Shown here piece by piece: positions 1,087-61,536 of a stretch of DNA of 64,000 bases. The notes under the pieces are model-generated. The model made no database searches. It saw nothing but the letters and a program-made list of their open reading frames with translations, and was not told the DNA's origin. Numbering within the stretch: the stretch's first letter is position 1; the number at the start of each line of letters is the position of its first letter. This stretch comes from Gemmatimonadales bacterium (GTDB taxonomy: Bacteria > Gemmatimonadota > Gemmatimonadetes > Gemmatimonadales > GWC2-71-9). The stretch is taken from NCBI GenBank assembly GCA_035699205.1, contig DASSBA010000209.1, positions 2,062 through 66,061 on the forward strand, given 5' to 3'. Position numbers and translations under genes: made by a program.

Positions 1087-3102
1087 ATGATGACCATCAA
1101 AAGCGCACGGGTCTGGTTGCTCGGGATCCTCGTGGTCGCGGCCTCGGTCACCTGCCGGGAGGACGTCGCCGGGCCCCTGCCGCAGCCGGCCACGGTCCGG
1201 ATGGTTGGGGGCGACAATCAGGTCGGGCAGCTCGGTCAGCCACTGGCAGACTCGCTCGAGGTGAAGGTCGAGGATGATCAGGGACAACCCGTCGCCGGCG
1301 TCGCCGTCGATTGGACGCTGGCGGGCGGCGGAAGCGTGAGCCAGTCCCGCGGGCTCAGCGGGACGGATGGCGTGGTCGAGGTACAGCGGGTCCTGGGTGG
1401 CACCGCGGGCCCGCAGACCACGACCGCCACCGTTTCAGGCCTGCCCGCCGTGGTCTTTACCGCCATGGCGGAGGCGGCCGGGCAGCCCCGGTTGACGGTC
1501 GTCACGCAGCCGTCGGGTGCGGCGCAGGATGGTGTGTCGCTCGAGCAGCAGCCGGTCATCCAGGCGCAGGACGCCGCCGGCCAACCCCTCGGTGCCGGAG
1601 TTCCCGTCACCGCCACGACCGAGGGTGGCGCCGCGCTCTCGGGAACCACGGTGGTCCAGACTGACGGATCCGGGATGGCGCGGTTCGGCGACCTCGCGCT
1701 CAGCGGCCCCTCCGGCAGCTACACGCTGACCTTTTCCGCACCCGACCTCGGCGCCGTCCGGTCCACCCCGATTTCGCTCAGCACGACCATGGGGGCCCTC
1801 GGCCAGTGGACACCGCCCTTCGCCTGGCCGATCGTGGCTATTCACGTGGTGCTGCTTCCGGATGGCCGGGTGCTCTCCATCGGACGCACCGGGACACCCG
1901 AGGTGTGGGATCCTGCGACCAACAGTTTCACCTCGATACCCAGCCCCGCCAGGCTGTTCTGTGCCGGGCACGTCCTGCTCGCCGACGGCAACGTGCTGGT
2001 GGTGGGCGGCCATATCAAGGACGGGTTCGGACTGCCGAACATGACGGTGTTTTCCGGCGCCAGCAATACCTGGACGTCGGATGCGCCGATGCCGCGCGGC
2101 CGGTGGTATCCGACCGCCACCGTCACGGGTACGGGCGAGGTGGTCATTCTCGCGGGCACCGATGAGGACAGCGCCGACGTCAGCATCCCGGAGGTGTGGA
2201 ACAACGGCTCCCTGCGGGAGCTCACCGGTGCGGACCACACGTTCGGTTGGTATCCTCGTGCCTTTCTGACGCCGGACGGCAGGATCTACGTGGCAGGGGC
2301 GGCCATCCGCACCCGTTTCCTGTCCCTCTCCGGCTCCGGGTCCTGGACCAACGGTCCGATGCGGCTGTATGGAATCCGGGACTACGGCTCGGCGGTGATG
2401 TACGATGACGGCAAGGTCATCTATGCAGGCGGCGGATTGACGACCAACACCGCGGAGCTGATAGACCTGAACCAGGCGACCCCGTCGTGGCAGTGGACGG
2501 GCTCGATGGCGTATCCCCGGCGGCACCTGAATCTGACCGTGCTTCCGACCGGTGAAGTGCTCGCGACGGGCGGGGTCGCCGGCACGACGTTCGACGACGT
2601 GACCAAGCCGGTGCATGCGGCGGAGCTGTGGGATCCGGCCACCGGCAAATGGACCACGCTTGCAAGCAACGTCGTGACGCGCGGGTATCACGGCACCTCG
2701 CTCCTCCTGCCCGACGGCCGGGTGCTGAACGCCGGCAGCGGCGAGGGGGCCGGTGCGCCGGACGAACGGAACGCGGAGCTCTTCGCACCGCCCTATCTCT
2801 TCCGCGGCCCCAGGCCGGAGATCACCAACGCGCCTTCCGAGGTGTCCTACGGCGCGCACTTCAGGATCGAAACCCCACAGGCGTCCGCGATCACCCACGT
2901 CAGCCTCATCCGGCTCGGTGCGGTGACCCATGCCTTCGACCAGAACCAGCGGTTCCTGCACCTCACCTTCACCGCGGACGCGAGCGGACTCACGGTGACC
3001 GCGCCGAGCGAGCCGAATCGGGCGCCGCCCGGGCATTACATGGTGTTCATCCTGAATGGGAGCGACGTGCCGTCCGTCGCCCGGATCGTCCGGCTGTTCT
3101 AG
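1087..3102 (+). CDS. Copper radical oxidase-like (galactose/glyoxal oxidase family) lipoprotein with N-terminal Ig-like domains and C-terminal DUF1929-type domain
   Basis: Signal peptide with a possible lipobox (VAASVTC). Ig-like repeats follow (GDNQVGQLGQPL...). Kelch-type propeller carries FCAGH, GRWYPT, RGYHGTSLLLPDGRVL and VTHAFDQNQR, matching the Cys/Tyr/Tyr-His/His copper ligand pattern of GlxA/GLOX-type enzymes. C-terminal E-set domain present. Confidence 0.8.
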   Translation: MMTIKSARVWLLGILVVAASVTCREDVAGPLPQPATVRMVGGDNQVGQLGQPLADSLEVKVEDDQGQPVAGVAVDWTLAGGGSVSQSRGLSGTDGVVEVQRVLGGTAGPQTTTATVSGLPAVVFTAMAEAAGQPRLTVVTQPSGAAQDGVSLEQQPVIQAQDAAGQPLGAGVPVTATTEGGAALSGTTVVQTDGSGMARFGDLALSGPSGSYTLTFSAPDLGAVRSTPISLSTTMGALGQWTPPFAWPIVAIHVVLLPDGRVLSIGRTGTPEVWDPATNSFTSIPSPARLFCAGHVLLADGNVLVVGGHIKDGFGLPNMTVFSGASNTWTSDAPMPRGRWYPTATVTGTGEVVILAGTDEDSADVSIPEVWNNGSLRELTGADHTFGWYPRAFLTPDGRIYVAGAAIRTRFLSLSGSGSWTNGPMRLYGIRDYGSAVMYDDGKVIYAGGGLTTNTAELIDLNQATPSWQWTGSMAYPRRHLNLTVLPTGEVLATGGVAGTTFDDVTKPVHAAELWDPATGKWTTLASNVVTRGYHGTSLLLPDGRVLNAGSGEGAGAPDERNAELFAPPYLFRGPRPEITNAPSEVSYGAHFRIETPQASAITHVSLIRLGAVTHAFDQNQRFLHLTFTADASGLTVTAPSEPNRAPPGHYMVFILNGSDVPSVARIVRLF

Positions 3103-11980: not shown

Positions 11981-12319
11981 ATGGCCGCGACGAATGCCCC
12001 GACTGTCCACGTCACCGATGCCTCGTTCGCCAGCGAGATCGAGCAGGCCGATGGACTCGTGCTGGTCGACTTCTGGGCGACGTGGTGCGGCCCGTGCCAG
12101 ATCGTGGCCCCCGTGCTCGAACAGCTCGCCGGTGAGTACGCCGGTCGCGCCAAGGTCGCCAAGGTGGATGTCGACGCCAACCAGCGCACCGCAATGCGCT
12201 TCAACGTCCGCTCGATCCCGAGCATCCTCTTCTTCAAGAACGGCCAGCACGTCGATACCGTGATCGGCGCGGTGCCGAAGGCGACGCTGGAGGGGAAGAT
12301 CAAGCAGCACCTGGCATAG
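11981..12319 (+). CDS. trxA: Thioredoxin
   Basis: WCGPCQ active site. The ATG at 11981 is preceded by GGGAGA. The stop TAG is at 12317-12319. Confidence 0.92.
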   Translation: MAATNAPTVHVTDASFASEIEQADGLVLVDFWATWCGPCQIVAPVLEQLAGEYAGRAKVAKVDVDANQRTAMRFNVRSIPSILFFKNGQHVDTVIGAVPKATLEGKIKQHLA

Positions 12320-12392
12320 ACGGAAGGACGGAAAGACGGAAAGACGGAAGGTGCGGCCCTTTCGTCCTTCCGTCTTTCCGTCTTTCCGTCCT
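12319..12392. repeat. Hairpin with tandem 8-mer arms: (GACGGAAR)x4 then (YTTCCGTC)x4
   Basis: Left arm 12319-12351, right arm 12359-12392. One register gives 26 perfect bp (12325-12350 with 12367-12392). An alternative register gives about 32 bp with 2 mismatches and 1 GU around an 8-nt loop. The element fills the trxA-rsmI spacer. Confidence 0.9.
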
Positions 12393-29251: not shown

Positions 29252-29270
29252 GGGGCCTGCCGGATGCGTG

Positions 29271-29306
29271 AAAGGTGAAAGGTGAGTGACTTCACCTTTC
29301 ACCTTT
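29271..29306. repeat. Hairpin with tandem 7-mer arms: (GGTGAAA)x2 / (TTTCACC)x2
   Basis: 15 perfect bp (29271-29285 with 29292-29306) and a 6-nt loop. It lies 13 nt past the 3' end of tRNA-Ser and 19 nt before the gltX start (both on the minus strand). Confidence 0.8.
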
Positions 29307-45976: not shown

Positions 45977-46531
45977 TCACTGCCCTCGGTCCGCCAGGAT
46001 CAGCCGGGTCGCGCTGGCGAGATCGCGCGTGGTCGGCCAGAGGCGGGCGTCGGGTCGCTGCGACTCGCGCGTGCCAGCGCCGGTGAGCAGCAGCACGCCC
46101 CGGCCGCCGAACGCGCCGGCGGCGGCGATGTCGCGGACCCGGTCGCCGACCCACCAGCTCCGGCTCAGATCCAGGCCGAGATCCGCCGCCGCCCGCTGAT
46201 AAAGCAGGGGGCCCGGCTTGCGGCAGGTGCAAGGTCCCGAGAGGTCGGGGTGGTGCGGGCAGTGATAGCGGGCCTCGAGCCGGGCGCCTTCGCGTGCGAG
46301 GAGCTCGTCGAGCCGCCTGGCCGTGGCGGCGTAGTCCGCCTCGTTCAGCAGCCCGCGGGCGATTCCGGACTGGTTGGTGACCAGGACGGCCGCGCGGCCC
46401 GCGGAGTTGAGCTTCCGGACCGACTCCGCCGCGCCCGGGAGGAGGCGGACGCCGGCCGGATCGCGGAGATAGTGGCGGTCCTCGATCAGCGTGCCGTCGC
46501 GATCGAGGAACACCGCCGGCCGGCCGTTCAT
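45977..46531 (-). CDS. gmhB: HAD-IIIA phosphatase, GmhB-like (D,D-heptose 1,7-bisphosphate phosphatase type)
   Basis: VFLDRDGTL, VTNQSGIARG, Zn motif CPHHPDLSGPCTCRKP, and WWVGDRVRD. Confidence 0.8.
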   Translation of the reverse strand: MNGRPAVFLDRDGTLIEDRHYLRDPAGVRLLPGAAESVRKLNSAGRAAVLVTNQSGIARGLLNEADYAATARRLDELLAREGARLEARYHCPHHPDLSGPCTCRKPGPLLYQRAAADLGLDLSRSWWVGDRVRDIAAAGAFGGRGVLLLTGAGTRESQRPDARLWPTTRDLASATRLILADRGQ

Positions 46532-47883
46532 GCCAGGAGGGCCTGCGCGAGCGCGCGGCTGATGATGGGCTCGACCTCCTCGGGGAGGGTGCGCGGATCG
46601 AGCAGCACCCGGCCGCCGCCGACGCGTGCCACCACCGCCGGCTCGCCCAGCCGAAGCCGGAGCGCGAGCCCGTCCGGACCGAGGTCGCCGGCGTCGAGGG
46701 CGACGAGCGTCGTCGGCAGGATCGCTCCGGGGAACGACCCGCCGCCGACCGCGCTCTCACCGGGCTGCAGCTCGGGCTGCAGCTCCGGCGGGCAGTGAAG
46801 GGCCAACCGTTCCGCTCGCGCCGCCAGCGCCTGCTCGCCGAGCGTGAGCATGCGCAGGACGGGGATCTCCCGGACCGCCGTGGCGGGGTCCTCGTAGAGA
46901 CCGAGCGTGGCTTCCAGGGCGGCGAAGGTCAGCTTGTCGGCCCTGAGGGCGCGCGCGAGCGGGTTGGCGCGACACCGCCCCACCAGGTCGCGCCGGCCGA
47001 CCAGGCATCCCGCCTGCGGTCCGCCGAGCAGCTTGTCGCCGCTGAAGAGGACGAGACCGGCGCCGGCCGCGACCGCGTCGGCCACGCGGGGCTCCGACGT
47101 GAGCCCCCAGGGGGCGAGGTCCGCCAGCAGTCCGCTCCCGACATCGTGGAGGTACGGAATTGCGGCCGCGTCCGCCAATTCCGCGAGCGAGGTCGGCTCG
47201 GGCGACGTGACGAACCCTCGCTGCTCGAAGTTGGAGCGGTGCACCGTCAGGACGGCGGCGACGCTTCCGCCCAGCGCTCGCCGGTAGTCGTCGAGGTGGG
47301 TGCGGTTGGTGGTGCCCACCTCGCGCAGCCGCGCGCCGCTCCGGGCGATGATGTCGGGGATCCTGAACGAGCCGCCGATCTCGATCAGCTCTCCGCGGGA
47401 GATGAGCACCTCCCGCCCCGCCGCCACCGCGTTGAGCGCCAGCACGAGCGCGCCCGCGGCGTTGTTCACCACCAGCCCGTCCTCGGCGCCGCTCACCCGC
47501 CCGAGCAGCTCGCGGCAGTGGTCCGAGCGGCTGCCGCGACGGCCGGTGCCGAGCTCGAGCTCGAGGTTGCTGTAGCCGCTCGCGATCGTGACGAGGGCCT
47601 GGACGGCGGCCTCGGCCAGCGGTGCGCGGCCGAGATTGGTGTGCAGGACCACACCCGTCGCGTTGAGCACCGGGCGGAGGCTCGGGCGGCGGCGCTCCAC
47701 CAGCCGCTCCCGGATCTCGGCGGCCCAGTCCTCCGGGCCGGCGTGCCGGACTCGCGCGGCGGCGAGTGCCTCACGCGCCGCCGCCACCACCATGGCGCGC
47801 GGCACGCTGACGAGCAGCGCCTCCACCTCGGCCTCCCGAAGCAGCCGGTCCACGGAGGGGAGCCGCCGGCGCCGGTCGGTCAC
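46528..47883 (-). CDS. selA: L-seryl-tRNA(Sec) selenium transferase
   Basis: LPSVDRLL N-terminus, NNAAGALVLAL, ISRGELIEIGGSFRIPD, EVGTTNRTHLDDY, and PLP-lysine motif FSGDKLLGGPQAG. The GTG start at 47883 overlaps the upstream stop. Confidence 0.88.
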   Translation of the reverse strand: MTDRRRRLPSVDRLLREAEVEALLVSVPRAMVVAAAREALAAARVRHAGPEDWAAEIRERLVERRRPSLRPVLNATGVVLHTNLGRAPLAEAAVQALVTIASGYSNLELELGTGRRGSRSDHCRELLGRVSGAEDGLVVNNAAGALVLALNAVAAGREVLISRGELIEIGGSFRIPDIIARSGARLREVGTTNRTHLDDYRRALGGSVAAVLTVHRSNFEQRGFVTSPEPTSLAELADAAAIPYLHDVGSGLLADLAPWGLTSEPRVADAVAAGAGLVLFSGDKLLGGPQAGCLVGRRDLVGRCRANPLARALRADKLTFAALEATLGLYEDPATAVREIPVLRMLTLGEQALAARAERLALHCPPELQPELQPGESAVGGGSFPGAILPTTLVALDAGDLGPDGLALRLRLGEPAVVARVGGGRVLLDPRTLPEEVEPIISRALAQALLA

Positions 47884-49250
47884 GGGGTCTTCCTGGCGGG
47901 CCGGTTGCGGAGCGAGTCGGGGCGCCGCTTCAGCGAGTCGGGCGCGGCCTTCAGCGAGTCGGGCCTCCGACCGAGCGAATCGGCGGCGCGCCGGAGCGAG
48001 TCCGGCGGCGGCGGCTTGGGGACCGCGAGCACGCCGCTCGCGTCTCCCGCCGCGCCGGTCACGTTCCGGATGCCCCGGAGATCGATGGCGTAGCGTCCGT
48101 CCGGCTTCCACGGCTGCTCGACTCTGAGCACGAGGCGGTCGCTGAGGGGCGGGCGCGTGGTGAGCGGCTTGGGCTCGGCCGCCCCGCGGGCGCCTGGTGC
48201 GCCCGGTGGCGCACCCTCCTCGACCTCCGCGATGCCCGGGCGCCGGGCGGCAGCCCGGTTGCGTGCGGCGGTGTCCCGCGCCGTCGTGTCGCGTGCCGTC
48301 GTATCGCGGCGGGTGGTATCGCGCGCCGCCCCAGCGCGCTGGTGGAGGCTGTCGTCCACCGGCTTGGGGAGCAGCGAGCTCACCCGCACGGGCGTCGAAT
48401 CGGGCAGGAGCCGAACCCTGGCCGCGGCGGCGGTCAGGCGCTGCCGCGGGTCGAGGCTCTGGGTGAGCTCGATGGTGGCGGACACGCTGTCGGCGACGGT
48501 GATGGTCCGGATGCGCGGCGGCGTCGTATCGTGCACGAACGCCCAGAGCTCACCCGCCGACGTCTTCCCCCGGGCCAGGCGCACGCTGTCGAACGCCTCG
48601 CGCGGGTCGAATCGCAGGTTGTGGTTCTGGTCGAGCACCCCGCGGACCAGGTACTCCCCCGCGGGCAGCGGGCCGAGGGAGATGTGACCGCTCGAGTCGG
48701 TCACCCCGCGGTAGGGGAGGCTGTCCGGCAGCAGGATCGCCTCGAGCAGCGCGGCCGGCGCCGGGCGGCTGGTGCTCCAGTCCACCACGGTGCCCTCGAT
48801 TTTCGCCGCCGGCAGGGGCGCGCCGGTCGTGAACGTCACGACGGCCCCGGTGTCGCTCCGGTTGCGCCGGAGATCGGTGACCCCCGGGAGCAGCTCCACC
48901 CGGTAGACGCGGTCGGCCCGCCAGCCTTCGCTCGGGCGCACGTCGATGCGGTCCCGGTGCCAGCTCACGTCCGGTACTCGAATGGCGGGCGAGAGGATGA
49001 TGAGCTTCTCCAGATCGCCCGTGCCGGTGCCTTCATTGGGCGTGGACCCCTCGGAGATGACCTCGTCGAAGCGGAACTCCACGCTCCCGCCGAAGTCCGG
49101 GATGCGGGCGAACGAGTCCGGGCGGGTGGCGAGGAGCTGCGGGGGTGAGATGTCGGGCGGGCCGCCGGGGGGCGGCTCGATGCGGGCGCAGGAAAGGAGC
49201 AACGGGACGGAGAGACGGAGGGACGGAGCGACGGAGCGACACAAGCCCAT
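47880..49250 (-). CDS. Lipoprotein with Ig-like (SbsA/Big_5-type) domains and basic C-terminal peptide repeats
   Basis: MGLCRSVAPSLRLSVPLLLSCARIE (lipobox LLLSC). Central beta-rich domains. The C-terminal region carries RDTT[AR] x4 and a [PA]DSL-containing 7-aa repeat x5. The start codon lies in the loop of the 49214..49296 hairpin. Confidence 0.7.
   Translation of the reverse strand: MGLCRSVAPSLRLSVPLLLSCARIEPPPGGPPDISPPQLLATRPDSFARIPDFGGSVEFRFDEVISEGSTPNEGTGTGDLEKLIILSPAIRVPDVSWHRDRIDVRPSEGWRADRVYRVELLPGVTDLRRNRSDTGAVVTFTTGAPLPAAKIEGTVVDWSTSRPAPAALLEAILLPDSLPYRGVTDSSGHISLGPLPAGEYLVRGVLDQNHNLRFDPREAFDSVRLARGKTSAGELWAFVHDTTPPRIRTITVADSVSATIELTQSLDPRQRLTAAAARVRLLPDSTPVRVSSLLPKPVDDSLHQRAGAARDTTRRDTTARDTTARDTAARNRAAARRPGIAEVEEGAPPGAPGARGAAEPKPLTTRPPLSDRLVLRVEQPWKPDGRYAIDLRGIRNVTGAAGDASGVLAVPKPPPPDSLRRAADSLGRRPDSLKAAPDSLKRRPDSLRNRPARKTP
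47905..48010 (-). repeat. In-frame 21-nt tandem repeat x5 encoding a 7-aa unit with [PA]DSL core
   Basis: The AGCGA[GA]TC[GC]GG motif recurs at 47911, 47932, 47953, 47974 (one-mismatch copy, GA swapped to AG) and 47995. It translates as PDSLRRAADSLGRRPDSLKAAPDSLKRRPDSLRNRP. Confidence 0.8.
48268..48330 (-). repeat. In-frame 15-nt tandem repeat x4 encoding RDTT[AR]
   Basis: Imperfect units gcggtgtcccgcgcc / gtcgtgtcgcgtgcc / gtcgtatcgcggcgg / gtggtatcgcgcgcc, read as ARDTTRRDTTARDTTARDTAARN. Confidence 0.75.
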
Positions 49251-49296
49251 CCGGGTGGCTTTCCGCTCCGTCGCTCCGTCGCTCCGTCCCTCCGTC
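49214..49296. repeat. Hairpin with tandem 8-mer arms: (GACGGAGS)x3.4 / (SCTCCGTC)x3.4
   Basis: 27 perfect bp (49214-49240 with 49270-49296) and a 29-nt loop (49241-49269). One arm ends 1 nt from the valS stop (49298-49300). The loop holds the ATG at 49250-49248. The other arm encodes residues 4-13 of the lipoprotein signal peptide. Confidence 0.9.
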
Positions 49297-49297
49297 C

Positions 49298-51997
49298 TCA
49301 ACATCCCAGCCGCTCCCGCTTCCGCACCAGCACCTGGCGCTGCTCGCTCCAGGCCGCCAGCTTTTCGCGCTCGCGGGCGACCACGTCGGCAGGGGCGCGG
49401 GCGACGAACTGCTGGTTGCCGAGCTTCTTTTCCTGCGAGGCGACGAGCGTGGCGAGACGGTCGGTCTCCGCGCCGAGCCGGCTGCACTCGCGCCCGACGT
49501 CGATGGCGTCGCCCAGGGGAACGAACACGGCCGTGCCATCGGGCAGCACGGCGTGGCCGCCCACCCGCTCGGTGCTCTCGGCGAGGACCAGCTCCGAGAG
49601 CCGGGCCATTCGCAGGATGGTGCCCCGCTCCGACTCCAGGGCGGGCGCGGACCACCCGCCGTCCTGACTCACGAAGGCTCGCACCGTCCGGCCCGGCTGC
49701 ACGCCGTACTCGGCGCGGATGCCGCGGATGGCCCCGACCACCTGCTGCACCAGCTCGAACTCGGCCAGCGCCTCCGCGTCCTCCGCCCGCGCGTCGGGTC
49801 GAGGCCACGGGGCCACCGAGATGGATGCGTCGGCGGGACGGCCGGGAAAGCGCTGCCAGAGCGCCTCGGTGATGAACGGCATGACCGGGTGGAGCAGCCG
49901 GAGCGCCACGTCGAATGTCTGCACCGCCACCGCGCGGGCCACCTCGCCGCCGGGGATGTCGCCATAGAGCCGAGGCTTGATCTGCTCGATGTACCAGTCG
50001 GCCAGATCGCTCCACAGGAAGCGGTACACCGCGCCCGCGGCCTCGTTCAGGCGGAACTTCTCGTACGCCTCCGTGGCCTCGCGCACGGTCGCGTCGCACC
50101 GGGCGATGATCCAGCGGTCGGCCAGGGTCAGCTCGTCGCGCCGGACCGCGTTCGGCGCCCCCGCGAGCGGCCGGAGCGCCGACGCAGGTCCGGCGGGCGC
50201 CAGGTTCGAGAGGATGAAGCGTCCGGCGTTCCACAGCTTGTTGGCGAAGTTCCGGCCCGGAGCGAACGACGCCTCGAGGTCGGCCGGATCCAGGATGACA
50301 TCGGTCCCCACCGACATCCCCGAGACGATCGAGTAGCGGAGCGCGTCCGCGCCGTAGCGCTCGACCACCTCGAGCGGGTCGATGCCGTTGCCCAGCGTCT
50401 TGGACATCTTGCGGTGCTGGGTGTCGCGCACCGTGCCGTGCAGGTAGATGTCCGTATACGGCACCTCGCCCATGAAGTGGAGCCCGGCCATGATCATGCG
50501 CGCCACCCAGAAGAACAGGATCTCGGGCGCGGAGACGAGCGTGTGGCCGGGATAGAACGCGGTGAGATCGCGGGTGTGCTCCGGCCAGCCCAGGCTGGAG
50601 AACGGAACCAGCCACGAGGAGAACCAGGTGTCGAGCACGTCCTCGTCCTGACGGACCGGCCCGCCGCACGCGGGGCAGCTCTCGAGGTCGGTGCGGCTGA
50701 CGGACACCCGGGCGCAGCTTTCCGCGTCGCAGTACCAGACCGGGATCCGATGGCCCCACCAGAGCTGGCGGGAGATGCACCAGTCGCGGATTCCCTCGAG
50801 CCACTGGGTGTAGTCGTCACCCCGGCGCTCGGGGATGAAGTGCAGCGTCCCGTCCCGGTAGGCCTCCAGGGCGGGTCGGGCGAGCGGCTCCATCCGGACG
50901 AACCACTGGTCCGAGAGCCGCGGCTCGATGATGGTATCGCAGCGGTAGCAATGGCCCACCGCATGCCGGTGCGGCTCGACCTTCGCGAGCAGCCCGGCGC
51001 CCTCGAACTCGGCGACGACCCGCGCGCGGGCCTCGAACCGGTCGAGCCCCTGGAACCGCTCGGGCGCGGCGAGGCTGATGCGCGCCTCGGGCGTCATCAC
51101 GTCGATCGATGGCAGGCCGTGCCGGCGGCCGATCTCGAAGTCGGCCGGGTCGTGCGCCGGCGTCACCTTCACCGCGCCGGAGCCGAAGGCCGGGTCCACC
51201 GCCTCGTCGGCCACGATCGGGACCCGCCGGTCCACCACCGGCAGCAGCAGCTCGCGCCCGACGAGGTCCCGGTATCGCCCGTCGTCCGGGTGCACCGCCA
51301 CGGCAGTATCGCCCAGCATCGTCTCGGGGCGGGTGGTGGCCACGGTGACGTGGCCGCCGCCGTCGGCCAGCGGATAGCGGAGATGCCAGATGCGTCCCTC
51401 GGTCTCGCGCTTCTCCGCCTCCTCGTTGGAGAGCGCGGTGAGGCAGCGGGGGCACCAGTTGATGATGTAATGCCCCCGGTAGATGAGCCCCTCGTCGTAC
51501 AGCGTGACGAACGCCTCGCGGACGGCGCGGGAAAGCCCCTCGTCCAGCGTGAAGTAGGTGCGGCTCCAGTCGGCCGAGCACCCGATGGCCTCGAGCTGCT
51601 GGAGGATGGCGGCGCCGGTGGCGCGGACGTAGGCCCAGACGCGCTCGACGAACGCGTCGCGGCCCACGTCGAAGCGGGTGAGGCCTTCTTTCGCCAGCAG
51701 CCGCTCCACCACGTTCTGCGTCGCGATGCCGGCATGGTCGGTGCCCGGCAGCCAGAGCGTCCGGCGCCCGCGCATCCGCTCGAACCGGACCAGGACGTCC
51801 TGCACCGTGTTGTTGAGGCCGTGACCCATATGCAGCACCGCCGTGACGTTGGGCGGCGGCATCATGATGACGTAGGGTGCTCCGGCGGGGCCGGCGGGGT
51901 TGGCGTCGGGCGAGAACAGCCCGCGCTCCCGCCACCAGGCGTAGAGGGCGGACTCGATGGTGGAGGGATTGTACTGGGGGGCGAGCGGCTCGGTCAT
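49298..51997 (-). CDS. valS: Valine--tRNA ligase
   Basis: 899 aa with PPPNVTAVLHMGH (HIGH) and KMSKTLGN (KMSKS) motifs and a C-terminal coiled coil. Confidence 0.93.
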   Translation of the reverse strand: MTEPLAPQYNPSTIESALYAWWRERGLFSPDANPAGPAGAPYVIMMPPPNVTAVLHMGHGLNNTVQDVLVRFERMRGRRTLWLPGTDHAGIATQNVVERLLAKEGLTRFDVGRDAFVERVWAYVRATGAAILQQLEAIGCSADWSRTYFTLDEGLSRAVREAFVTLYDEGLIYRGHYIINWCPRCLTALSNEEAEKRETEGRIWHLRYPLADGGGHVTVATTRPETMLGDTAVAVHPDDGRYRDLVGRELLLPVVDRRVPIVADEAVDPAFGSGAVKVTPAHDPADFEIGRRHGLPSIDVMTPEARISLAAPERFQGLDRFEARARVVAEFEGAGLLAKVEPHRHAVGHCYRCDTIIEPRLSDQWFVRMEPLARPALEAYRDGTLHFIPERRGDDYTQWLEGIRDWCISRQLWWGHRIPVWYCDAESCARVSVSRTDLESCPACGGPVRQDEDVLDTWFSSWLVPFSSLGWPEHTRDLTAFYPGHTLVSAPEILFFWVARMIMAGLHFMGEVPYTDIYLHGTVRDTQHRKMSKTLGNGIDPLEVVERYGADALRYSIVSGMSVGTDVILDPADLEASFAPGRNFANKLWNAGRFILSNLAPAGPASALRPLAGAPNAVRRDELTLADRWIIARCDATVREATEAYEKFRLNEAAGAVYRFLWSDLADWYIEQIKPRLYGDIPGGEVARAVAVQTFDVALRLLHPVMPFITEALWQRFPGRPADASISVAPWPRPDARAEDAEALAEFELVQQVVGAIRGIRAEYGVQPGRTVRAFVSQDGGWSAPALESERGTILRMARLSELVLAESTERVGGHAVLPDGTAVFVPLGDAIDVGRECSRLGAETDRLATLVASQEKKLGNQQFVARAPADVVAREREKLAAWSEQRQVLVRKRERLGC

Positions 51998-57308: not shown

Positions 57309-58153
57309 GTCGCGCCGCCGTCATCGGCGCGGGCACCATGGGCAACGGTATCGCCCACGTCTTCGCGCAGCATGGGTGGGCGGTGGCGCTGATCGACACG
57401 GCGCCGGCCGCCCTCGAAAAGGCCACGGCGACCATCCGGGCCAATCTCGACCGGCAGGTGAAGAAGGGGACGCTGGCGCCAGAGGCGCCGGCCGAGGTGC
57501 TGGGACGCATCACCACCGCCACCGAACTCGGGGCCGCAGCGGGCGCGACGCTGGTGGTCGAGGCGGCGAGCGAGAATCCGGCGGTCAAATTCGCGGTCTT
57601 CGAGCAGCTCGACCGCGAGTGCGGGCCGGACGCGATCCTGGCCACCAACACCAGCTCGATCTCGGTCACCGAAATCGCCGCCCGTACGCGCCGGCCGGGG
57701 CAGGTGATCGGGATGCATTTCATGAACCCGGTGCCGGTCATGCAACTCGTCGAGGTGATCCGGGGCCACGCCACGAGCGACGCCACCACGCGAATGGTGA
57801 TGGAGACGGCCGCCGCGCTGGGCAAGACGCCGGTCGAGGTGAACGACTATCCGGGTTTCATCTCCAACCGCGTCCTGATGCCGATGGTCAACGAGGCGAT
57901 CTTCTGCGTCATGGAAGGCGTGGCGGCGCCGGAGGCGATCGATACCGTCATGAAGCTCGGGATGGCGCACCCGATGGGTCCGCTCGCGCTCGCCGATTTC
58001 ATCGGCCTCGACGTCTGCCTGGCCATCCTGGAGGTGCTGCAGCATGGCCTGGGCGACGACAAGTACCGGCCCTGCCCGCTGCTCCGGAAGATGGTGGCCG
58101 CGGGGGACCTGGGGAGGAAGAGCGGGCGGGGGTTTTTTCTCTATAAGTCGTGA
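57305..58153 (+). CDS. hbd: 3-hydroxybutyryl-CoA dehydrogenase
   Basis: [15 protein letters not shown]..., [39 protein letters not shown]. Confidence 0.92.
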
Positions 58154-58256
58154 GTCGTGAGTCGTAAGTCGTGAGTCGTAAGGCATGACTCAGCGCCGAT
58201 CACACACCGTCCGACTCACAAGGTCGACTCACGACTCACGACTCACGACTCACGAC
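58147..58256. repeat. Hairpin with tandem 7-mer arms: (GTCGTRA)x5 / (TCACGAC)x4+
   Basis: About 32 bp with one A-C mismatch (58147-58178 with 58225-58256) and a loop of about 46 nt. The hbd stop TGA (58151-53) is inside the first repeat. The element ends 13 nt before the next start (58270). Confidence 0.88.
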
Positions 58257-58269
58257 CTGCGACTATCCC

Positions 58270-59337
58270 ATGGACCTCCTCGCCCAGATGCACGCGCTCG
58301 GCCACGAGCAGGTACTGTTCTCTCACGACCCCAGCTGCGGCTACTTCGGCATCATCGCCATCCACGACACCACGCTCGGCCCCGCGCTCGGCGGCACCCG
58401 ATTCTGGCAATACGCCTCCACCGAGGACGCCACCACCGACGCGCTCAGGCTGGCGCGCGGGATGACCTACAAGTCGGCCGTCATGGGGATCAATCTCGGC
58501 GGGGGCAAGTCGGTGATCGTGGGCGACAACAAGCGGCCGGACCGGGAAGCGCTGTTTCGCGCCCACGGCCGCTTCATCGAGACGCTCGGCGGCCGCTACA
58601 TCACCGCCGAAGACATCGGCACCAGCCCTGCCGACATGGAATACATCAAGCTGGAAACCGACCACGTGGCCGGCCTGCTGGGTCTCTCCGGCGACCCGTC
58701 GCCGGTGACCGCCTTCGGCGTGTACGTCGGGATGAAGGCGGCGGCCAGGGCCCGCTGGGGGGACGATCGGCTGGAGGGAAAGACGGTGGCGGTGCAGGGA
58801 TGCGGCCACGTGGCGACGCATCTCTGCCGGCATCTGCACGCGGACGGGGTCCGGCTCATCGTGACCGACATCGACGGCGAGAAAGTCCGGCGGGTGATGG
58901 ACGAGACCGGCGCCGGCTGCGTGGCCCCGGAGGCGATCTACGACCAGGTCGCCGACATCTATGCGCCCTGCGCCCTGGGCGCCACCATCAACGACGAGAC
59001 GCTGCCGCGGCTCAAGGTGGAGATCATCGCCGGGGCCGCCAACAACCAGCTCGCGGAGGACCGCCACGGCGACCTGCTCGAGCAGCGCGGGATTCTCTAC
59101 GCGCCGGACTACGTGATCAACGGCGGCGGCGTCATCAACGTCTATGGCGAGCTGCACCGCTGGCCGCACGAGCGCTCGAAGCAGAAGGCCGGCGAGATCT
59201 ACGATACGCTGCTCCGCATCTTCGACATCGCCACGCGCGAGCGCATCCCGACCTACCGCGCGGCGGACCGGCTGGCCGAGGAGCGGATCGCGGCGGTGGG
59301 GGGGCTGGACCGGATGTGGATGGGCGACGGACGGTGA
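58270..59337 (+). CDS. Leucine/valine/phenylalanine dehydrogenase family enzyme
   Basis: [22 protein letters not shown] (catalytic Lys), [16 protein letters not shown] Rossmann motif. Confidence 0.88.
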
Positions 59338-59403
59338 GCGGTAAGCGGTGAGCGGTAGTTTCCGGGTGCCGCCGCTCACCGCTCACCGCTTACCGCTCAC
59401 CGT
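59331..59403. repeat. Hairpin with tandem 7-mer arms: (GCGGTRA)x3.7 / (TYACCGC)x3.7
   Basis: 26 perfect bp (59331-59356 with 59378-59403) and a 21-nt loop. The stop TGA (59335-37) is inside the first repeat. One unit has a G-to-A change on the left arm matched by C-to-T on the right arm. Confidence 0.9.
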
Positions 59404-61452: not shown

Positions 61453-61455
61453 GGA

Positions 61456-61530
61456 GCGGTGAGCGGTGAGCGGTGAGCGGTATACGCTTCCGTCGCTCAC
61501 CGCTCACCGCTCACCGTTTACCGCTCACCG
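61456..61530. repeat. Hairpin with tandem 7-mer arms: (GCGGTGA)x3.8 / (TCACCGC)x3+ (same unit as 59331..59403)
   Basis: 23 perfect bp (61457-61479 with 61494-61516) plus 2 GU, with a loop of about 10 nt. An extra TTTACCGCTCACCG unit allows a slipped register. It starts 4 nt after the stop (61450-52) and ends 6 nt before the nnr ATG (61537). Confidence 0.88.
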
Positions 61531-61536
61531 TCCACC

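Follow-up and report, generated by a model that had tools for sequence, protein, structure and literature searches.

REP and REPIN elements are short, dispersed, hairpin-forming repeats found at gene ends, and Rickettsia palindromic elements (RPE) are tolerated in frame within open reading frames (ORFs). Tandem repeats of G-rich heptamers, GGGAATC in Xanthomonas and GGGGA(C/T)T in Nostoc, are likewise dispersed (Rehm et al. 2015, PMC4692102). Xanthomonas genomes each carry 70-75 convergent pairs of such arrays that are capable of forming stem-loops, and the heptamers of both genera prefer sites less than 50 bp from a stop codon, are rare between divergent genes, and are depleted within coding sequences; signal peptides are not mentioned in that study (PMC4692102). 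The cyanobacterial STRR, hairpin-capable tandem repeats with 7-bp units, occur between the operon genes hupS and hupL, where their function is unknown but possibly lies in transcript stability (PMC2670836). In Neisseria, CTCTT repeats are found in the leader-peptide coding region of opa, where the pyrimidine-rich unit encodes hydrophobic residues (PMC3960869; for further general literature on repeats, see PMC4679880). Here we describe a repeat hairpin that directly follows the stop codon of valS in a 64,000-nucleotide stretch of DNA from a Gemmatimonadales bacterium (hereafter “the window”). We consider it likely that this hairpin, a member of a genome-wide class anchored at stop codons, lies in the 5' coding region of the adjacent lipoprotein gene and is translated, from an upstream start codon that overlaps the valS stop, as the signal peptide of the lipoprotein.

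The hairpin resembles the Xanthomonas and Nostoc repeats in its head-to-tail units, its convergent pairing arrays, and its dispersed copies, many of which are located at stop codons in this genome. It differs from them in that (i) units of 7, 8, and 9 nt are found here, (ii) its own unit, GACGGAGN, has runs of GG only and is not of the quadruplex subclass, and (iii) it most likely constitutes the coding sequence of a signal peptide. Judged by geometry and placement, it can be assigned to the known class of tandem heptamers and octamers, minus the quadruplex subclass. The STRR belong to another phylum, have other unit sequences, and have not been reported to be translated or to sit where start and stop codons overlap. 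With opa, the locus shares short tandem repeats inside the DNA for a cleaved leader peptide; however, opa has a single direct array whose copy number switches the frame (phase variation), whereas here two inverted arrays form a stem, the frame is conserved, and most orthologues have 9-nt units. Unlike REP/REPIN elements and their associated RAYT transposases, the arms consist of tandem, microsatellite-like units rather than one conserved palindrome, and there is neither a PF01797 match in this genome nor a target-site duplication. A survey of the literature on Gemmatimonadetes repeat hairpins and on hairpin- or repeat-encoded signal peptides did not find the phenomenon described; what is new here is the quantitative evidence on reading frame and start codon over 54 orthologous junctions, and the rapid replacement of sequence at one site.

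The hairpin is on the minus strand, and its first base is the one following the valS TGA (a gap of 0 nt). Its 27-nt arms (49270-49296 and 49214-49240) are 100% complementary and separated by 29 nt, and a slipped register gives 34 nt at 94% pairing (49205-49238 with 49264-49297). Both arms are tandem arrays of about four octamers each, GACGGAGN and its complement: Tandem Repeats Finder reported 4.4 copies of GACGGAGC at period 8 for the 3' arm (49206-49240) and 4.1 copies at the same period for the 5' arm (49264-49296). The octamer pattern occurs six times in the window, every time within this hairpin, while 0.15 occurrences were expected. When folded as RNA, the 141-nt region reached -103.4 kcal/mol (z = -9.6), a value equaled by 0 of 200 shuffles; the stem alone contributes about -80 kcal/mol and begins 7 nt 3' of the ATG at 49304. 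Arms and fold both confirm the original prediction of a 27-bp perfect hairpin with a 29-nt loop directly after the valS stop. The elements of the junction, in the order in which they are transcribed, are as follows.

49313 to 49317, minus strand: Shine-Dalgarno-like GGGAG, within Arg-Glu codons of valS, 8 nt before the ATG at 49304
49302 to 49304, minus strand: ATG (part of ATGTTGA) that overlaps the stop of valS, most likely where the lipoprotein starts, as indicated by the orthologous start and by frame evidence
49264 to 49297, minus strand: 5' arm (RNA sense), made up of four GACGGAGN octamers and translated as RTEGRSDGATE, a charged n-region
49239 to 49263, minus strand: loop of the hairpin, with a small inner stem (AGCCC/GGGCU) and an in-frame ATG at 49250-49248
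49205 to 49238, minus strand: 3' arm, built from NCTCCGTC octamers and translated as CRSVAPSLRLSV inside the signal peptide
49188 to 49190, minus strand: lipobox Cys codon (LLLS-C), predicted residue 1 of the mature lipoprotein, conserved in all orthologues as C-ARIEPPPGGPPD

Two conventional identities for the structure were rejected. A search of 48900-49600 against Rfam (evalue mode) returned only sub-threshold matches to microRNA precursors, those of a generic long hairpin, and no known RNA family. An intrinsic (Rho-independent) terminator should have a U-tract directly after its GC-rich stem; none was present, the tail reading CCGUUGCUCCUUUCCUG, and a scan for terminators and promoters made no call at the hairpin. 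As a separate observation, the end of valS that holds the lipoprotein start (GGGUGCG, 49299-49305) is complementary to the Cys-Ala-Arg codons UGCGCCC (49184-49190). This pairing is also found in L024, L025, L037, and other loci, enclosing the signal-peptide region even where the hairpin is absent, and may be a simple consequence of conserved codons on both sides.

The start codon was examined across 80 orthologous loci taken from Gemmatimonadales metagenome-assembled genomes (MAGs), of which 54 had a junction that could be dissected (canonical valS tail ...KKRELLGC[x]*; n = 54). In the window, the valS stop shares bases with an in-frame ATG at 49304-49302, from which an uninterrupted frame runs through the two arms. 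A codon of this kind was found throughout: the Gly-Cys codons of valS, GGR-TGY, create a GTG (38) or an ATG (16) that lies 4-7 nt before the valS stop in 54 of 54 canonical junctions. GGC accounts for 58% of Gly codons in this genome, yet GGR is used at every one of the 54 junctions, and GGGAG is present 8 nt upstream of the overlapping start at 30 of them. Between the valS stop and the Cys codon lie 32 to 146 nt, a spacing that equals 2 modulo 3 in 49/54. Initiation in the loop would leave the frame free with respect to the valS stop, so these data favor the upstream start. The five junctions that are out of frame (L035, L057, L065, L072, and L090) all come from the MFD series of MAGs (5/18, vs 0/36 of the others), which we take to be long-read assemblies; in three of these five, tblastn matches within the mature part also have lengths that are not multiples of three, and all five look like assembly errors.

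The inserts themselves argue in the same direction. From the overlapping start to the Cys codon, no stop interrupts any of the 32 in-frame loci whose insert is large, while only 31% of frames through the hairpins of this genome are stop-free. Within the insert, 18 of these 32 hairpin-bearing loci lack any in-frame ATG, GTG, or TTG, and only nine have an ATG. The closest orthologue, P0002, has its gene called from the ATG equivalent to 49304; gene callers are inconsistent in these genomes, some of the starts that they place being upstream of both arms and others in the loop. The codon that overlaps the valS stop is, then, the most likely start of the lipoprotein, in which case the whole hairpin would be translated. 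The original prediction had taken the loop ATG (49250-49248) for the only plausible start and had seen it as being displayed there by the stem; it overlooked the in-frame ATG at 49304-49302, and a loop start fits poorly with the conserved upstream codon, the conserved frame, and the many inserts that have no internal start.

In the frame of the loop ATG, which both starts share, the 3' arm reads CRSVAPSLRLSV and continues into PLLLSC, in agreement with the earlier claim that this arm is translated as part of a signal peptide ending in an LLLSC lipobox. The Cys can be regarded as the genuine lipobox cysteine because C-A-R-I-E-P-P-P-G-G is common to all orthologues with a complete N-terminus; the preceding residues (L-L-S-C) fit the lipobox [LVI][ASTVI][GAS] before an invariant +1 Cys, and cleavage by signal peptidase II followed by lipidation is predicted. 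The n-region is positive from either start, with a net charge of +4 from the ATG at 49304 and +2 from that at 49250. At most orthologous loci the units are 9 nt long and keep one phase. Readings in orthologues include TEKTEKTEKTER...SVLSVLSVLSAC (TEKTEKTER...SVLSVLSVLSC), AEKAERAER...SAISAISAISALSC, and GSGAAGQRG...LLPICPAALLAC. Purine-rich 5' arms encode Thr, Glu, Lys, Arg, and Gly, and pyrimidine-rich 3' arms encode Ser, Val, Leu, Phe, Pro, and Ala; across the hairpins of this genome, charged residues make up 44% of those read from 5' arms and 19% of those read from 3' arms. The hairpin stretches all the way from the valS stop to the Cys codon, its last 3'-arm unit supplying the lipobox, so that hairpin and signal peptide are, as predicted from these readings, effectively the same element. 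The original prediction was also borne out in that the repeat acts at once as a stem and as coding sequence, and the comparison of orthologues that it proposed shows repeat-derived signal peptides there too.

The mature protein is under purifying selection. In a comparison with the closest relative, L104, which has the same hairpin, the ratio of nonsynonymous to synonymous substitution (dN/dS) was 0.12 for the mature part at dS = 0.27, indicating that the gene is maintained, and about 1 for the signal-peptide codons.

The hairpin is one of many in this genome. A scan of the 3.7-Mb assembly (71% G+C) found 319 tandem arrays of 6-9-nt units, 57 of which pair up as hairpins, with the G-rich arm first in 55/55. 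The units of these hairpins fall into few families (AGTCGTG, AGCGGTG, AGGACGGA/AAGGCGGA/GACGGAGC, and one 9-mer). Of the sides that face gene 3' ends, approximately half start at a distance of -2 to +12 nt from the stop codon, as measured on a gene map from an approximate caller based on G+C at third codon positions that missed some genes, including the lipoprotein, and most genes downstream of hairpins begin just after the hairpin. The GACGGAG octamer is lineage-specific: this genome has it at about 12 loci, the sister genomes that lack the hairpin have one or two such loci, and only 4 of 60 other sampled genomes of the family gave matches. A RAYT (Y1 transposase, PF01797) was not found in this genome, which is 90.5% complete, so that its absence is not proof; controls matched in 6 of 14 genomes. 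A second case of the architecture proposed for the window was found on contig C78 (24328-24418, minus strand): the GTG start and the stop of the gene upstream overlap (GTGA), and the octamer arms, both in frame, read VKTEGRKDGKTEG...SVFPSFRLSVLVVSVLYLAC before the frame ends in the lipobox LYLAC.

Other members of the class were noted in different settings. Five further hairpins with tandem-repeat arms lie in the window (12318-12392, 29268-29306, 58146-58256, 59332-59402, and 61454-61536), with units AGACGGAA, GTGAAAG, AGTCGTG, CGGTAAG/CCGCTCA, and GAGCGGT; several adjoin gene ends. Octamer hairpins of the AAGGCGGA/TTCCGCCT type, at about 15 loci, have loops of 110-170 nt (e.g., C124 38991-39199, C147 9649-9839, and C268 9951-10192). 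Two paralogous, protein-kinase-like ORFs (C49 5731-5795 and C92 1666-1733) share the position of an in-frame hairpin of AGTCGTG heptamers, reading …LDSGEA[VVSRESWVV..TTHDPRLTT]LRWYTMPYIDGESLR…, which is reminiscent of an in-frame insertion of the RPE kind.

Turnover at the valS junction is rapid. A tree of the mature protein places the window and L104 as sisters of three genomes that lack the hairpin and have an ordinary signal peptide, MRVTRAVRPVSVLLALAALAC; elsewhere in the tree, unrelated hairpins, or none, are found at branch lengths of only 0.02-0.05 (L055 vs L058; L059 vs L063; and the group L047, L048, L051, and L081). A strong hairpin (-47 to -95 kcal/mol) is present at 34 of the 54 junctions (63%), with unrelated sequences, and 18 of the 54, the sister clade included, have none. 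Between the window and L104 there are four differences in the arms, all at the variable N of the unit and all keeping or improving pairing, and unit numbers are equal. No target-site duplication was visible at the junction. Two simple histories were discarded: an ancient, conserved hairpin, as near-identical relatives have unrelated units and the sister clade has no hairpin; and a simple insertion into an intact ancestral signal peptide, as the hairpin spans the whole interval from stop to Cys and left no target-site duplication.

In the explanation we favor, a stop-anchored repeat hairpin would have come to lie within a gene whose start codon shares bases with the stop upstream; because of that overlap, a hairpin placed just after the valS stop would fall inside the 5' coding region of the lipoprotein. 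The purine-rich 5' arm would then provide the charged n-region, RTEGRSDGATERK, and the pyrimidine-rich 3' arm, together with six further codons, would provide the hydrophobic core and lipobox, SVAPSLRLSVPLLLS-C. As the signal peptide is presumably removed after export and tolerates nearly any sequence of such polarity, selection need only keep the frame open. The hairpin would thus survive for two reasons: the cleaved peptide is tolerant, and the order of purines before pyrimidines mimics that of n-region before h-region. If so, a functional signal peptide has been replaced repeatedly by unrelated repeat hairpins while the mature protein stayed nearly identical, providing a clean natural example both of how little sequence information a signal peptide needs and of non-coding repeat DNA being recruited as coding sequence. 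For annotation, it suggests that in these genomes an exported protein that follows a start/stop overlap can have an N-terminus encoded wholly by repeats.

The same arrangement bears on translation. Because the stem begins 7 nt after the start codon, de novo binding of 30S subunits is expected to be poor, and translation of the lipoprotein would rely on ribosomes that terminate at the valS UGA, where the base of the stem would already be melted. The original prediction had suggested that ribosomes terminating at valS open the stem; such coupling, by termination-reinitiation at ATGTTGA, becomes more plausible given the upstream start.

Several observations weigh against translation of the whole hairpin from the overlapping start, or against its being a tolerated passenger only. 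First, in the equilibrium fold of the window the probability of being unpaired is 0.85 for the loop AUG and only 0.04 for the upstream AUG; in hairpin-less orthologues, the corresponding value at their own start is 0.01-0.41. Second, the window's signal peptide is marginal: with units of 8 nt the frame rotates and Arg is introduced, so that the uncharged stretch before the Cys measures only eight residues (LSVPLLLS, mean hydropathy 2.0), and it fails a PROSITE-PS51257-style rule that the orthologues tested, with 12-22 uncharged residues, pass. Third, in the small clade of L052, L054, L061, L076, and L079, a GGC codon puts CTG where the start would be, and valS continues into the 5' arm; the lipoprotein of this clade must, on this evidence, start further downstream, and the upstream-start architecture would not be universal. 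Fourth, the 63% occupancy of this junction compares with about 2% genome-wide (approximately 57 hairpins per 2900 ORF junctions), which passive tolerance alone does not explain and which hints at selection or a hot spot. Finally, the counts over the 54 junctions include related, non-independent genomes, so that their significance is overstated.

Extension of valS is not confined to that clade. The gene reads past ...LLGC[x] into the 5' arm in L052, L054, L061, L073, L076, L079, and L086, giving ValRS a repeat-encoded C-terminal tail (e.g., ...LLGCGAAGRRDGGADGR*), and in L073 and L086 one stretch of DNA is read twice, by the extended valS in one frame and by the lipoprotein in another.

Occupancy and turnover fit either a mutational hot spot after the stop or selection for some stem. 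More speculatively, and with odds that we would put somewhat below even, some stop-anchored process may repeatedly build or install new hairpins at this hot spot; with the purine-rich arm first, each would be a ready-made signal peptide whose charged segment leads into a hydrophobic one with a lipobox at its end, replacing the previous one de novo on very short timescales, and its stem would make downstream expression strictly dependent on upstream translation. As a well-defined site with many independent replacements, the junction is suited to the study of both the origin of the repeats and the effect of the stem on translational coupling.

Selection for the stem itself is the alternative that survives best, and it is compatible with translation of the hairpin as signal peptide, although we judge it rather unlikely to be the primary explanation. 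The hairpin would be a regulator or insulator between valS and the lipoprotein-selA pair, with translation as a side effect; it could be a translation-dependent attenuator, or a protective stem at the 3' end of the valS mRNA that lowers or conditions downstream expression. Such a role is suggested by the 34 of 54 junctions that carry a hairpin despite unrelated sequences, far above the genome-wide frequency, and by the arm differences between the window and L104, which preserve or improve pairing. The concentration of the class at stop codons, like that of the Xanthomonas heptamers (PMC4692102), and the suggested effect of STRR hairpins on transcript stability (PMC2670836) are consistent with it as well. 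Nevertheless, the U-tract and terminator call are missing, 18 of the 54 orthologues do without a hairpin, the start/stop overlap implies co-transcription and coupled translation that would keep the stem melted, and a mutational hot spot could equally account for the high occupancy.

Initiation at the loop ATG (49250), with only the 3' arm coding and ribosomes on valS controlling access by opening the stem, we regard as improbable. This codon is accessible in the folded ensemble, is kept in L104, and would yield a signal peptide of normal length (21 residues); moreover, the clade with valS extended into the 5' arm must initiate downstream, and contig C221 offers a precedent. On the other hand, the only GGAG is 15 nt upstream and inside the stem, leaving the loop ATG with no Shine-Dalgarno sequence at a usable distance. 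Only a minority of the in-frame hairpin orthologues (9/32) have an internal ATG, more than half have no alternative start codon either, and conservation of frame relative to the valS stop in 49/54 would not be expected. In addition, an AUG in the loop needs no opening of the stem, so the coupling proposed along with it does not follow. The C221 hairpin (1211-1357, minus strand) is the sole 9-nt-unit hairpin in the genome. The TAG of the upstream gene adjoins its 5' arm, its loop of about 75 nt contains an ATG and a canonical KRRPRR n-region, its 3' arm encodes the hydrophobic core LSALSVLSVL, and the GGAG of the last 5' unit is at Shine-Dalgarno distance from the loop ATG; it appears to be a convincing, genuine example of a start in a loop.

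We consider it very unlikely that the junction is a contingency locus, in which slippage by 8 nt would switch the lipoprotein and the coupled selA on and off in the manner of the CTCTT repeats of Neisseria opa. Gain or loss of one octamer would shift the frame, the repeats are in a leader-peptide coding region as they are in opa (PMC3960869), and five junctions are out of frame. Opa-type phase variation was rejected as unlikely, however, since the frame is conserved, the 9-nt units that dominate at orthologous junctions cannot shift it, and unit number has not changed between the window and L104. Furthermore, none of the 36 non-MFD junctions is out of frame, the MFD series breaks the frame in the mature part too, each arm has only about four units, and altering one arm would disrupt the stem as well.

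Least credible is a G-quadruplex formed by the G-rich arm in place of the hairpin, as proposed for the Xanthomonas and Nostoc heptamers: geometry and placement match those repeats (a G-rich array on each strand, near stops; PMC4692102), but the GACGGAG unit has GG runs and no tracts of three or more G, and a two-tetrad quadruplex would lose out to a duplex of about -80 kcal/mol with the perfectly complementary arm, which lies 25-29 nt away.

The genes on either side of the hairpin are as follows.

49298 to 51997, minus strand: valS (valine--tRNA ligase), matching NCBIfam NF004349 (1111.7 bits) and TIGR00422 (993 bits), with its TGA stop at 49300-49298
47880 to 49304, minus strand: Ig-like (Big_5 / CarboxypepD_reg-like; Pfam Big_5) lipoprotein gene, 474 codons from the ATG at 49304
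46528 to 47883, minus strand: selA, matching TIGR00474 (512 bits)

The lipoprotein scored 32.7 bits against Pfam Big_5 (cut-off 23.6) and has 2047 homologues, the named ones of which belong to Gemmatimonadales. The GTG start of selA overlaps the lipoprotein stop (GTGA), suggesting that valS, the lipoprotein gene, and selA form a translationally coupled chain. Tandem repeats also encode the C-terminal portion of the lipoprotein (47911-47964 and 48271-48328): those with a period of 21 nt specify PDSL(K/R)xxP motifs, and those with a period of 15 nt specify RDTTA motifs.

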